A stretch of 64,000 nt of DNA from Paramecium tetraurelia (lineage: Eukaryota). This document shows, in pieces, positions 5,783-12,211 of the stretch. The stretch's first letter is position 1. Every line of letters starts with the position of its first letter. Below the pieces are notes generated by a model. That model worked only from the letters and a program-made list of their open reading frames with translations. It did no database searches and was not told where the DNA came from. The translations under genes were made by a program, and so were the position numbers. Location: NCBI GenBank assembly GCA_000165425.1, contig CT868023.1, positions 1 to 64,000 on the forward strand, written 5' to 3'.

Positions 5783-6555
5783 TCACAATCTGAATAATGG
5801 ATAACGAACCTTGTCGTTTTTTCTAGATCCGCAAGGGATTCCACCATAAATATCACAAGGACATCTTTATGGTTAATATTATTCATTGACACAAAATGAA
5901 ACACTTATCAATAATAATTTATTATTTGAATCTTTAGAGCATAATAACTAAGCTGTTGATCCAATTTTATTTTCAATGGCATCTAATATACTGTCTGTAT
6001 CGTATAATTTATTGTCGTCTGGTTTAATACCAGCAGCAGATAAAATATCATAGATATTGTATGATTTCCATAATTATAATGTTGTTTAAAAGTATTCTTC
6101 TTAGACATTCATTCCAGGAACTTAAGGTACTAAATCATCCTTTTCATCCCAGCAAGTACCATGCTTATTCCATTCATGTCTATCAATAAATCATATAAAT
6201 TACGCTCTAAATGATCCTGATGGATTGAAAAAACCGACCCATGCTTAATCCAAATTAGTCATGGTTGTCTTCGAAAGGTTTGATTCTTTGAATTTATTAT
6301 TGGTACAGGCTTCGAGTTCTTCGCAATCCCCACTATCATTTGTAGCTCCTGGCCATAATCCATGGATGGCCCACGATTAACCCTTATAATTTCCAACATT
6401 ATCCTTATAACATTGTTTAGTTAAACAAATGCTACCAGGCCATTATTGCTATTCTAATATGCATTTTAGTTTACTTAAAAGGTATAGAACATATTTGGCA
6501 CTTCATATGAAAAACCAATTGTAATTAAAAGAACAATTATCAAATTTTTGGACAT
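5783..6555 (-). CDS. Ribonuclease T2 family, secreted/lysosomal
   Basis: Signal peptide MSKNLIIVLLITIGFS; CAS I WAIHGLWP and CAS II HEWNKHGTCW; short introns. Confidence 0.95.
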
Positions 6556-8246: not shown

Positions 8247-10459
8247 ATGTATCAGCAATAAAGCTTAAGAAATTTATTTCTTCGAACAAATGGATTAATA
8301 AGAATTAGACCAAAAGTGAGAGTAACAGATAATTACACCCTATCTCTTGTGTATACTCCAGGGGTTGGCCATATTTGCAAAGTAATTTAAAGTGATCCAG
8401 ATCAATTATATGATTTGACAATTACCAATAATTCTATTGCCTTATTAGCAGATGGATCAAGTAAATTTGTTATATATGTAGAATTTAACCTTGCAAAACC
8501 TTAGAAAATGATTCCAAACTTAGAAGCTACAAGTGCACTCTATAAAGCTTTTTATGATGTTGATGCATACCCAATTGTCCTAAATAGAAATATAATGCAA
8601 AATGTCTCTGATTACTTGCTTGTGATTGATAATTTGTCTCCAACATACAAAGTAAAGATTGCGTAATTGAAATTAGACAATTGTTTTGATAGATATTGAG
8701 AGTAGTCTGGCATGCTAAATATTATAAGCAGTCGAGAAAACAAAATTAGACTGCAGTGTTATAATCACGAATTCGGAAAATCTTAGAGAATAATTATATG
8801 ATGCTGCATTGATAAAGGCTACCTTAGATTGCAGATCTATCTTAAAACCTTCTTAATTAGAAGTGGTGAGAAAAGCAATAACTTCAATCGATTTTAAAGG
8901 ATTACCAAACAATTTAACTAATATTTTAATTTCTGCTTATGCTTAAGGATTATAAGAAATTCACAAAAACAAATGGTATCATCACACAGTACGAAATGTT
9001 GAACCTGATTAATTTGTAAAAAAACTAAATGATCTGTACATTTATGGAGATATAGCATAGTATAATAAATGGTCGGATGGGCATTTGCTTTAAAAAAATG
9101 ATTTTTATCAAAATGCTTTGGAATTGCATAGAAGATATAATGGAATGATTACAATAGAGTTAAAGTTTAGTCCTAGATCATTAGAAGACTTATTCAAGAT
9201 TTACGAGTCATCTTATAAAAAGGATGAACTCGGTTAATTAAGATAGATGCTCATTGATGATCCAAATAAATTAAGAGAGATCACATTTTAAAAAAACTAC
9301 GCTGCAATAATTACAAATGGGACAGCTATTTTAGGATTAGGAAATATAGGGCCAGCTGCAGGATCACCAGTTATGGAAGGAAAGTCGGTTTTATTTAATG
9401 CTTTGGGAGGCATTGATCTAATGCCAATATGTTTAAAGGAGAAAGACCCTCAAAAATTAGTTAAGATTATAAGATGGTAATAATAGTAGTGATAGTTTAG
9501 TATTGCTCCAATATTTTCAGCAATTAACCTAGAAGATCTTAGAGCACCTGATTGTTTCCCTATTGAAGAAGAAGCTGTGCATAATCTTCATATCCCATTA
9601 ATGCATGATGATCAACATGGCACTGCTGTTGTCAGTTTAGCAGCTGTTATTAATTATATAAAATTGACAAAGAAGAACATCAAAGACCTGAAGTTGGTAA
9701 TCAATGGTGCAGGGTATCAAATATTATCTATATATTATATAGTGCAGCTGGAGTTGCTATTTGCAAATTGCTACATGGACATGGTATTTAAGACATCATT
9801 ATTTGTGACACTACTGGTATCATATATGAAGGAAGGCCTTAGAACATGAACGAATTCAAAAATGAATTAGCTTCTTTTACAAATCAAAATAAAATTAAAG
9901 GAGTTTTGAAAGATGCAGTGAAGGGAAGAGATTTATTTGTAGGAGTGTCAACTGCTGTAATTGAATATCTAAGTGTTATAGGGATCTCTGACTAAAGAAA
10001 TGATTAAGAGTATGAATAAGAATCCATTTATTCTTGCTTTGGCTAATCCAGAACCTGAAATTATGCCTGATGATGCCATTGAAGCTGGGGCCTTTATCAT
10101 AGCAACTGGAAGATCTGATTTCAATAATCAAGTAAACAATTCCCTTGCATTTCCTGGTATCTTTAGAGGAGCCATCGATACGAGAGCAAGAGAAATCAAT
10201 TTAGAAATGAAAGTAATTCTATAGGGTAAATGATTAGATTGCTGCTGCTTATGCCATTGCTAATAGTATTAAAGATTCAGATCTTTGTCCTACTAGGATA
10301 TTACCAGGTGCATTAACTGCAGATATTCCAGCCAATGTTGCCAGAGCAGTTGCGATTGCTGCTATGTAGACTGGAGTGGCAAAAATAAATATTGATCCAG
10401 ATAAGGTCTTCGATTAGGCTAGGAAACTAATTATGGAAGGAAATATGCCCTCTTTGTGA
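8247..10459 (+). CDS. NAD(P)-dependent malic enzyme, prokaryotic small-subunit type, with a tandem degenerate N-terminal copy
   Basis: Motifs [92 protein letters not shown]; several ~21-28 nt introns. Confidence 0.95.
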
Positions 10460-10484: not shown

Positions 10485-12211
10485 ATGCAATAAATTGACA
10501 TTGATAATCATCATTTAAACTTCTAGTTAGAACTACAATATGCCAGAGCAAGATAACGATAGAGGAGAAGGAATATAATCCTAATCGTATTTGCTATAAT
10601 GTCCATCTTCTATGTATTCATTCAACCAAATCAATATGGCAATAAATAAAATCAGATTCAATATTCTTAAACTAATGGCACTAATGGAGCCATCAACATT
10701 ACAGAGACCAATTCAACTTTACTCTAAATCTAAAAACATTTTGAAATATTAGAGAAATTACTCATCTCCCAATTTCAAGGAAAATGGACTGATACATAAT
10801 TAACATCAAATGAGTTGGCAGAAGCCAATTTCTATAAAACTTCTTATTAAAATCGCTTTCAAATACAACTACATTTGAAGCTAATAGAAGGATAGTTCCT
10901 AGAGGATTATTATAACCAATTCTCATTTTATTTGAATTCGTCATAACTAGTGTTACCCCTTGAAGACAACAACTTTGTATTCGAAAATGTCAGAGGGTCT
11001 TATAGAAGATCTAGTGTTTATGAAAATGATCAGTCCAGCTTAGAAATCTTTGCTAACTTGACCATGAGATTAAATAACATCAACATGGATAGTGATACCC
11101 AAGATGATATTGGAATCGAATTAGATGTTCGTTATACTTTAGATTCAGAAACATTCTCCTTCAATTGCAATCTTAATATCATAAATGTAAAACATAATCA
11201 TAAATTAAGATAGATAGCAAAGCGATTATCTATTCCACAATAGTCTCAGTACTAGGTGTGATTTAATTTATTAGTTGTCTTAAATTGATGAAGGACTTCA
11301 TAAATGAAAACAGGATGGCTTCCTAATTCAGTCTCATTATATTTGTATTCCTTATGATCTATGATGGCTATTTAGGAATAGTTCATTTCTTTCTTGCACT
11401 GCAAAGCGAAGTAATTACCTATTATTAATTAGTATTTCTTAACACCTGCCTTCCTTGAATTAGTGTTGTTTTTCTTCTTAGAATTGAAATTAGCTAAACA
11501 CATTTGGCAAGAAAGGTTCATCAACCTACAGGACAACCTGAATTTAAGAAGAGAACTCTATAGATTTCATCTTAAGTTTTACTTGCTGGCTATTGTCGTT
11601 GTACTTCTACTTTATTACCTTATTTACTATAATGTTTTCTTGATTGCCATGAATCTATATTTACTACCTTAGATAATACATGTAGCATATAAAGGACAGT
11701 ATGTAGAATTTGATAAAATCTTTGTTTTCGGTTTATTGTCAACTAGATTATTCATACCTGTATTAGATACATTCTTAATTTAGATTTACTATAGAGGCTG
11801 TCCTTACAATATACTACATGCTTAGGTGTCCTATTTAACAGTAACAATTATAATTCTCTTATTTGCTGCTCAAGTAGTCCTCTATTATTATCAATGTAAA
11901 ATTGGACCGAGATTTTTCCTTCCCAAGTGGCTAAGACCTAAATCACATGAATATTTTATAGAATAACCCATAGATGGAGAATGTGCAATTTGCATCAGTT
12001 AATTAACTGAAATGCCAACGGAATCATAATTAGATAATAAGTTTATTGCGAAAATAATTAGTTAGAATTAGAATAAATTAATGGAAACACCTTGTGTATT
12101 AATTATGGAGTATCTTAGGGTCATCATTTTCATTCCATTTGTTTAACTAAATGGATGAATGTCAAATTAAACTGTCCAACTTGTCGTTCCGTACTTCCAC
12201 CATTAATTTGA
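10485..12211 (+). CDS. Multi-pass transmembrane RING-H2 E3 ubiquitin ligase, Tul1/FLY1-like
   Basis: Multiple TM segments, GPRFFLPKW, then CAIC...METPC-HHFHSICLTKWMNVKLNCPTCRSVLPPLI*. Confidence 0.85.

Follow-up and report, generated by a model that had tools for sequence, protein, structure and literature searches.

Malic enzymes are usually grouped into small dimers, large chains that are complete in themselves, and PTA hybrids. The gene considered here lies at positions 8247 to 10459 of the window, i.e., the 64,000-nucleotide stretch of Paramecium tetraurelia DNA that was analyzed (assembly GCA_000165425.1, contig CT868023.1, positions 1 to 64,000, forward strand). An original prediction, made from the letters alone, described it as a malic enzyme built as a fused pseudo-dimer, with the catalytic Tyr and Lys split between two copies. 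The premise that small prokaryotic malic enzymes are dimers in which each chain obtains its catalytic Tyr from its partner is stated in the available portions of PMC7902834, PMC11944484, and bioRxiv 2020.07.07.192161, and the available text of PMC11944484 describes the chains of these dimers as entangled. In the Paramecium gene, whose structure, expression, reciprocal motif pattern, and bacterial relatives are established below, the two units stand in one chain, with the Tyr motif in copy 1 and the Lys, metal, and NADP machinery in copy 2. It quite probably encodes a single-chain, one-site malic enzyme stemming from an old bacterial fusion, in which copy 1 donates Tyr36; with this putative donor, the enzyme would convert malate and NAD(P)+ to pyruvate and CO2.

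A single frame with two unequal copies

The locus was translated with NCBI code 6, the region having 29% GC, in-frame TAA and TAG codons, and tiny GT..AG introns. Removal of six such introns (21 to 29 nt) leaves a stop-free single frame of 687 amino acids (aa) in seven exons, running from ATG to TGA at 8247..10459 on the + strand, and this conceptual product is identical at 687/687 residues to a public record (P0123, Paramecium tetraurelia GSPATT00032849001). Intron 1 (8461..8481, 21 nt, in frame and without a stop) is placed by its position in the paralogs, where it measures 26 and 23 nt; introns 2 (8652..8676, 25 nt), 3 (9477..9500, 24 nt), 4 (9714..9742, 29 nt), 5 (9957..9981, 25 nt), and 6 (10213..10237, 25 nt), all on the + strand, are placed by both the frame and the paralogs. 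The six positions are identical in 3/3 paralogs, the other two of which lie elsewhere in the genome and are 82% and 73% identical to the 687-aa protein. The junction between the copies falls within open exon 3 (800 nt); two separate genes or a mis-joined gene model were ruled out by this location, by identity with the annotated protein, and by the shared introns (3/3 paralogs).

Stranded polyA RNA covers the gene at a depth above zero in all bins between 8216 and 10503, in 2/2 raw runs and on a single strand, and loose ends of the reads agree with splicing of introns 3 and 5; the Logan contigs of run X5 contained nothing that covers the locus. Purifying selection acts on copy 1, whose nonsynonymous divergence between paralogs (pN) is 0.10–0.30 against a synonymous divergence (pS) of 0.71–0.94, and a pseudogene was ruled out by expression and by pN far below pS. 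Relative to the oldest paralog, identity is 77% in the copy-1 Tyr arm and 54% in the copy-2 arm. At window positions 9528, 9546, and 9575, the RNA reads carry letter differences and loose ends, which probably reflect cross-mapped paralog reads and not editing, since the loose-end consensus resembles the C81 paralog. Because weak, intron-blind genome searches with PF00390 and PF03949 brought up the three paralogs and no other malic enzyme-like loci, the three may provide the organism's main malate-to-pyruvate/NADPH route; a genome search for a large-type enzyme, made with a single query and without a positive control, gave no match and supports no claim.

All features described next lie on the + strand. 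The N-terminal domain of copy 1 (aa 1–156, 8247..8760) comprises alpha1, beta1, the Tyr helix, and beta2 onward, and is catalytically eroded; it is recognized by PF00390 and by a profile built from 78 single small malic enzymes (399 columns), which aligns with copy 1 over columns 13–164 only (E 5e-26; hhalign probability 99.9%) and with copy 2 over columns 9–398. Within it, YTPGV places the predicted catalytic Tyr36 at 8352..8354, invariant in alignment A1 and located at the modelled interface, and LEAT (8520) presents EAT (8523..8531; EAI in orthologs) in place of EGK, so that the catalytic Lys of this copy is gone. There follows a deletion of approximately 165 columns that removes HDDQHG and the Rossmann domain, just as the original prediction had read copy 1, and then an all-helical segment in the model (aa 163–262, 8779..9078). 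The further claim that this segment resembles the C-terminal helices rested on 10-residue motifs, which are indeed present at 8809 (copy 1) and 10159 (copy 2); an hhalign E value of 0.008 against single enzymes, and of 3.5e-4 against tandem copy 1 (probability 37%, 89 columns), gives weak to moderate support for a derivation of the copy-1 tail from C-terminal helices. Direct BLASTP of copy 1 against copy 2 gave no signal (best E 0.97).

The N-terminal arm of copy 2 (aa 270–329, 9100..9279) retains alpha1 and beta1, with predicted beta1–beta1' contacts of residues 286–290 with 18–20, and has IYESS in place of YTPG. The original prediction rightly had copy 2 losing the motif, but the residue itself is kept, as Tyr304 of IYESS (9202..9204) aligns with the catalytic Tyr column; this Tyr is present in 15/15 Paramecium and 0/3 Tetrahymena proteins and is mostly lost in relatives. 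Catalytic Lys364 belongs to MEGK at 9373..9384, a motif correctly recognized earlier and slightly misplaced, since 9376–9384 covers EGK only. Copy 2 further contains metal ligands Glu406–Asp407 (9532..9537, within LEDL at 9529), equivalent to MaeB E149/D150 in the available text of PMC7902834; Asp431 and Asp432 in HDDQHG (9604..9621); and the nucleotide-binding motif GAGAAG with Gly464/466 (9706..9752), which is interrupted by intron 4. Asp488, Arg497, and Lys505 (9807..9860), invariant in A1, are spaced like MaeB D233/R242/K250 in the 9kru alignment. The complete malic enzyme catalytic set is therefore distributed across the chain, with Tyr36 in copy 1 and Lys364, Glu406/Asp407, Asp431/432, and GxGxxG in copy 2. 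Pfam searches of exon pieces returned, as anticipated, two PF00390 matches (E 2.8e-5 and 1.3e-15) and one PF03949 match in copy 2 only; no PTA domain was matched in the six exon pieces, and the chain ends with the malic enzyme C-terminal helix.

The same asymmetry extends across relatives. Among the 120 listed matches of the first search, HDDQHG is single and C-terminal in 120/120, two copies of Y[TS]PG occur in 0/120, and one Y[TS]PG near the N-terminal end occurs in 114, the remaining six being shorter proteins with none. From 331 fetched proteins, 290 distinct two-copy sequences were kept by HDDQHG position, so that HDD counts hold by construction: 157 short-type (600–800 aa) and 133 tandem (~830–900 aa) proteins, many of them near-copies that thin to 26 and 26. 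Y[TS]PG is found in copy 1 of 157/157 short-type and 133/133 tandem proteins and in copy 2 of 0/157 and 0/133, and the catalytic Lys is found in copy 2 of 157/157 and 133/133. Tandem copy 1 also keeps the Lys (131/133); in the corresponding column of short-type copy 1, K is outside the five commonest residues, which make up 152/157 rows. As a control, 78/78 single malic enzymes have both motifs, each once. Conservation of the Tyr helix is 86% in copy 1 and 59% in copy 2, with the reverse in the Lys region (63% vs 95%), and profile coverage of copy 1 past column 160 is near 0 in the 157 short-type proteins vs 1.0 in the 133 tandems. A C-terminal 'FxYEG' expression considered as a common marker was dropped as noisy.

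Bacterial relatives and ancestry of the fusion

Complete bacterial tandems of 830–860 aa were already returned by the first search, and a profile search found at least 120, the few named sources being NC10/Methylomirabilis, Dormibacteraeota, Desulfobacteraceae, Vampirovibrionales, Armatimonadetes, and Nitrospinae. Intermediates of 812, 773, and 699 aa in a 50%-identity library have a partial copy-1 Rossmann domain; the proteins P0338, P0359, P0371, and P0387 comprise these eroding forms together with a 1136-aa form that has a long extra sequence. Fused forms of 660–710 aa lack the copy-1 Rossmann domain altogether, among them L117 and cluster member P0493, labelled Planctomycetota. A 56%-identical relative of P0335 is intronless and adjoins bacterial sugar-nucleotide genes. 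Smallest are minimal forms of 479–545 aa (L111–L115 and L119–L139; P0350, P0358, P0360, P0366, and P0370), which consist of the copy-1 Tyr arm, the remnant, and a copy-2 core from which the Tyr arm has been deleted. In 21 full open reading frames parsed from this group, copy-1 YTPG is retained 21/21, and a TN[KR]xN signature is present in 21/21, as it is in 139/157 short-type proteins. When 351 Cyanobacteriota genomes were searched with P0335 copy 1, none gave a close P0335-like match, and small genomes with the ~500-aa form were flagged; this form was matched in 26/26 Cyanobacteriota genomes (1.7–2.5 Mb) preselected for two weak matches. The minimal forms are likely a monomeric end state with Tyr in cis.

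Named eukaryotic members are confined to Paramecium (five species) and Tetrahymena (three species), and other short-type proteins come from short contigs. One of these, P0214 (in the cluster of P0083), is a 421-aa fragment of a 731-aa short-type family on a 2.5-kb contig from a metagenome-assembled genome labelled 'Clostridia bacterium', and is either protist DNA binned in error or a member from bacteria. In P0015, P0145, and P0040, which are Tetrahymena proteins and one member of 730 aa, the N-terminus consists of Met-Gly followed by a basic extension, possibly an N-myristoylation signal. P0355 (848 aa) is a tandem of reversed polarity behind an extra N-terminal segment, with the catalytic copy first and the Tyr donor second. 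Since its catalytic half clusters with single malic enzymes, sequence comparison shows that fusion occurred at least twice, P0355 being independent. Loss of the copy-1 GK Lys was discarded as a marker of common descent: the Tyr donor of P0355 has lost it too, and the loss therefore looks functional.

Phylogenies were unrooted, with an outgroup drawn from 80 loci that were found with generic patterns and have single-copy matches (78 parsable open reading frames; Bacillota-leaning). In a FastTree analysis of 201 N-domains, 70/70 copy-1 rows fall on one side with support 99. An IQ-TREE analysis (LG+C20) of 64 hand-picked rows, i.e., both halves of 9/26 short-type, 9/26 tandem, and 6/23 reduced proteins with 16 single-type rows that include the P0355 catalytic half, places the 24 copy-1 rows together (100/92) and the singles together (90/95). 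In this tree, ciliate-type copy 1 joins P0335, P0337, and P0344 (100/98), ciliate copy 2 joins the same three (96/96), and the group containing ciliate copy 1 adjoins tandems labelled Vampirovibrionales and Armatimonadetes (99/91). A copy-2 tree of 383 columns sets 16/17 singles apart (SH-like approximate likelihood ratio support 98). Polarity and the layout of C-terminal helices and linker are also common to the ciliate and bacterial fused forms. Both ciliate halves most likely descend from a bacterial fusion. The original prediction of a bacterial-type gene that later gained spliceosomal introns agrees with the bacterial fused relatives and the six introns.

An old bacterial fusion would thus have produced a tandem of ~850 aa, which would have lost the copy-1 Rossmann domain (660–710 aa), passed to a ciliate ancestor, and there gained introns, as a sister bacterial branch shrank on to ~500 aa. 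Transfer from bacteria to ciliates would be the direction because the longer intermediates are bacterial. The available text of PMC1413528 lists malic enzyme among the transfer candidates of rumen ciliates with no description of its architecture, and PMC6993867 refers briefly to a ciliate malic enzyme. A search of the openly accessible literature turned up no account of a malic enzyme that is tandem-fused or of a two-copy one in ciliates; as far as found, the ciliate two-copy form and the stepwise reduction series are new.

Predicted active site and competing explanations

An AlphaFold2 model of the ortholog P0001 (92% identical; 47-row alignment) has a predicted local distance difference test score (pLDDT) of 93.1, with 90–96 across the linker (aa 251–280), and a predicted template modelling score (pTM) of 0.92. 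Against single small malic enzymes, it aligns over residues 271–663 only (5cee: Z 35.3, root mean square deviation 1.6 Å, 386 aligned). Against human ME2 (1pj4), residues 21–684 align onto 96–562 (Z 25.3, 2.9 Å, 390 aligned), these alignments reporting first and last residues only. By this indirect measure, running from 21 to 684, a single rigid superposition accommodates both the Tyr segment of copy 1 and the core of copy 2; it begins 15 residues ahead of Tyr36 and 16 ahead of Tyr112 (ME2 position from PMC13461788). An independent model of a 498-aa bacterial protein of the minimal form (pLDDT 93.6) has the same offset, aligning with ME2 from 15 residues before its Tyr (8 against 96, Tyr23). 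The models thus predict that the copy-1 Tyr segment occupies the place of the ME2 Tyr112 segment, which would complete the site within a single chain.

When the halves were split and folded as two chains, they scored 0.93 as a complex against 0.00 for the best of three controls; the runs shared at least 92% of their contacts, and the partner pLDDT was 90; the mark used for such scores is reached by 116/157 solved vs 2/215 mismatched pairs (71/105 vs 2/126 in eukaryotes). The interface includes residues 32–48 and 362–367, residues 43/44 contact 356/359, and the beta1–beta1' pair is formed. Copy 1 is accordingly predicted to pack on copy 2 as in a small malic enzyme dimer. In the proposed mechanism, an ancestral small bacterial enzyme would have had two entangled chains, each giving its Tyr helix to the site of its partner, and the two protomers would have been joined head to tail in one chain. 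Copy 2 would be the catalytic protomer, with Lys364, Glu406, Asp407, Asp431/432, and the Rossmann domain, and copy 1 would have been reduced to the part that wraps its partner and supplies Tyr36. With the second site dead, its Lys, metal ligands, and cofactor domain, as well as the copy-2 YTPG, would have decayed. The cofactor is probably NADP+, a preference suggested by the match of Asp488/Arg497/Lys505 to the MaeB residues D233/R242/K250, which the available text of PMC7902834 links to NADP+ preference. The enzyme is probably cytosolic, because the N-terminus has no extension able to be a long transit peptide.

Several observations weigh against descent from a bacterial fusion with Tyr36 as donor, beginning with ancestry. 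The N-domain trees rest on 124 columns, their branches are long, and their bootstraps unsettled; copy 2 does not form a single group (21% of bootstrap trees); a long-branch single, P0376, is placed beside the ciliate group in the copy-2 tree; mutual attraction of degenerate copies may be at play; no taxon label is attached to P0335, P0337, and P0344; and Paramecium lacks the TN[KR]xN signature. A tree constrained to join the ciliate halves is worse by 29 log units, and the resulting rejection of a ciliate-only duplication by the approximately unbiased test is borderline (p-AU 0.046). This borderline rejection leaves some room for the earlier claim of an independent replay, in which a single small bacterial enzyme was acquired and then duplicated and fused in ciliates, with the same mechanism, and P0355, with its opposite polarity and its catalytic half among the singles, shows that independent fusion happens. 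Nevertheless, the claim gives way to bacterial fused forms of the same polarity: ciliate copy 1 falls among the copy 1s of bacteria, the same three reduced forms are the closest partners of both ciliate halves, helix and linker layout is shared, and fused forms already devoid of the copy-1 Rossmann domain exist in bacteria (P0493, L117). A ciliate-specific fusion is accordingly the least probable of the alternatives considered.

Other observations bear on the site and the chain. The 58-nt RNA reads, none of which spans the gene, are incapable of showing a full-length fused transcript, and the Tyr36–Lys364 pair is absent from the 25 best contacts listed for the split halves. As like dimers have been solved (5cee, 3nv9), the complex score may reflect memory and hence shows likeness, not binding. 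No linker is needed for the split halves to score as a complex, and the parent architecture, according to the available text of PMC11944484, is an entanglement between chains, both of which would fit complementation in trans, with copy 1 wrapping copy 2 of another chain in a swapped dimer or oligomer. Against this arrangement, the single-chain model is compact, with confident scores across the linker, and linkers differ little in length among family members, which would fit pairing in cis; the trans arrangement is improbable, if less so than the other alternatives. Tyr304 is not plainly dispensable, being retained in every Paramecium protein and matched by the same Tyr in 121/133 bacterial tandem copy 2s, and the literature yielded no activity data for the enzyme. 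Copy 1 could on these grounds be a mere structural or regulatory scaffold, with catalysis by Tyr304, without any Tyr, or with shifted chemistry (e.g., oxaloacetate decarboxylation only). However, a copy-2 Tyr is found in 15/157 short-type proteins vs Tyr36 in 157/157, minimal forms drop the copy-2 Tyr arm and retain copy-1 YTPG, and the cofactor and metal sites are fully kept, making a scaffold role a rather remote prospect, between the other two in probability.

Outside the gene, an upstream gene on the minus strand (~5783–6540) has HGLWP and HEWNKHG motifs, by which we take it to be RNase T2-like. A downstream gene (~10540–12210, +) encodes a membrane protein with a C-terminal CAIC...CPTCR RING-like finger, and RNA is found on the same strand.

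Comparison with known malic enzymes and fused dimers

A broader interpretation, offered tentatively, is that the Paramecium protein is a eukaryotic member of an unrecognized malic enzyme class in which an entangled dimer was fused and whittled stepwise (~850, 770–810, 660–730, and ~500 aa), with a possibly knotted backbone. According to the available text of PMC10598012, a trefoil knot results when an intertwined dimer is joined end to end, as in VirC2 and a designed HP0242 tandem. Because small malic enzyme dimers are entangled and fused intertwined dimers give knots, the fused malic enzyme chain may, by analogy, be knotted as well; the head-to-tail fusion of an entangled dimer is common to these proteins and the Paramecium enzyme, and the fold is different. 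If knotted, it would be an extra natural example of a knot arising by dimer fusion. The fused series retains every stage from a symmetric, two-site obligate dimer to an asymmetric, one-site chain, and such natural intermediates make the change from trans to cis residue supply directly testable. It ends in a monomer with Tyr in cis, i.e., the topology of human-type malic enzymes, and, if true, would offer a living, testable route to such enzymes.

That large malic enzymes had themselves been proposed to derive from dimer fusion, as the original prediction assumed, could not be traced: no such statement occurs in the available portions of PMC12704298, PMC7902834, PMC11944484, PMC5958461, and bioRxiv 2020.07.07.192161, and section 3.5 of PMC11944484 instead proposes two insertions, which bring in Tyr and Lys. 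In hhalign comparisons, 27 Acidobacteriota large malic enzymes gave no trace of a second copy, which old age could hide, and are collinear with one small N-domain with ~17 extra residues.

Bacterial tandems of 830–860 aa have the same polarity as the Paramecium enzyme, with the Tyr motif in copy 1 only and the full catalytic set in copy 2 only; they still have the Rossmann domain of copy 1 and, in most cases, its Lys, whereas the ciliate form lacks both and has introns. The hybrid MaeB/DME/TME enzymes likewise contain a small-type malic enzyme domain in a longer chain, with a trans Tyr and the NADP-type D/R/K residues, but their extra part is a C-terminal PTA sensor and that of Paramecium is an N-terminal second malic enzyme copy. 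Small-subunit enzymes (Ca. Phytoplasma 5CEE, Thermotoga 1VL6/2HAE, Pyrococcus 1WW8, and Entamoeba 3NV9) match copy 2 in fold and sequence (5cee E 2.6e-111), and the best sequence matches of the Paramecium protein are all of small type. Their composite site, with Tyr from the second protomer, and their beta1–beta1' pairing recur in the Paramecium model. In contrast to their unit of ~380–440 aa with both YTPG and MEGK, however, the Paramecium protein has 687 aa, two units, and split motifs, and, unlike their symmetric two-site homodimer, its second site is without Lys, metal ligands, HDD, and a Rossmann domain. In large-subunit enzymes (human ME1–3, E. coli MaeA 6AGS, and plant NADP-ME), one chain gives both Tyr and Lys, as predicted by the model for Paramecium, which differs from them in having YTPG and not YTPT, 687 vs ~550–600 aa, a Tyr–Lys spacing of 328 vs 71 in the large enzymes inspected, and sequence matches to their C-terminal part only (E 1e-11 to 1e-18). 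The Paramecium enzyme would work like a small malic enzyme, is laid out like a large one, and is a member of neither group.

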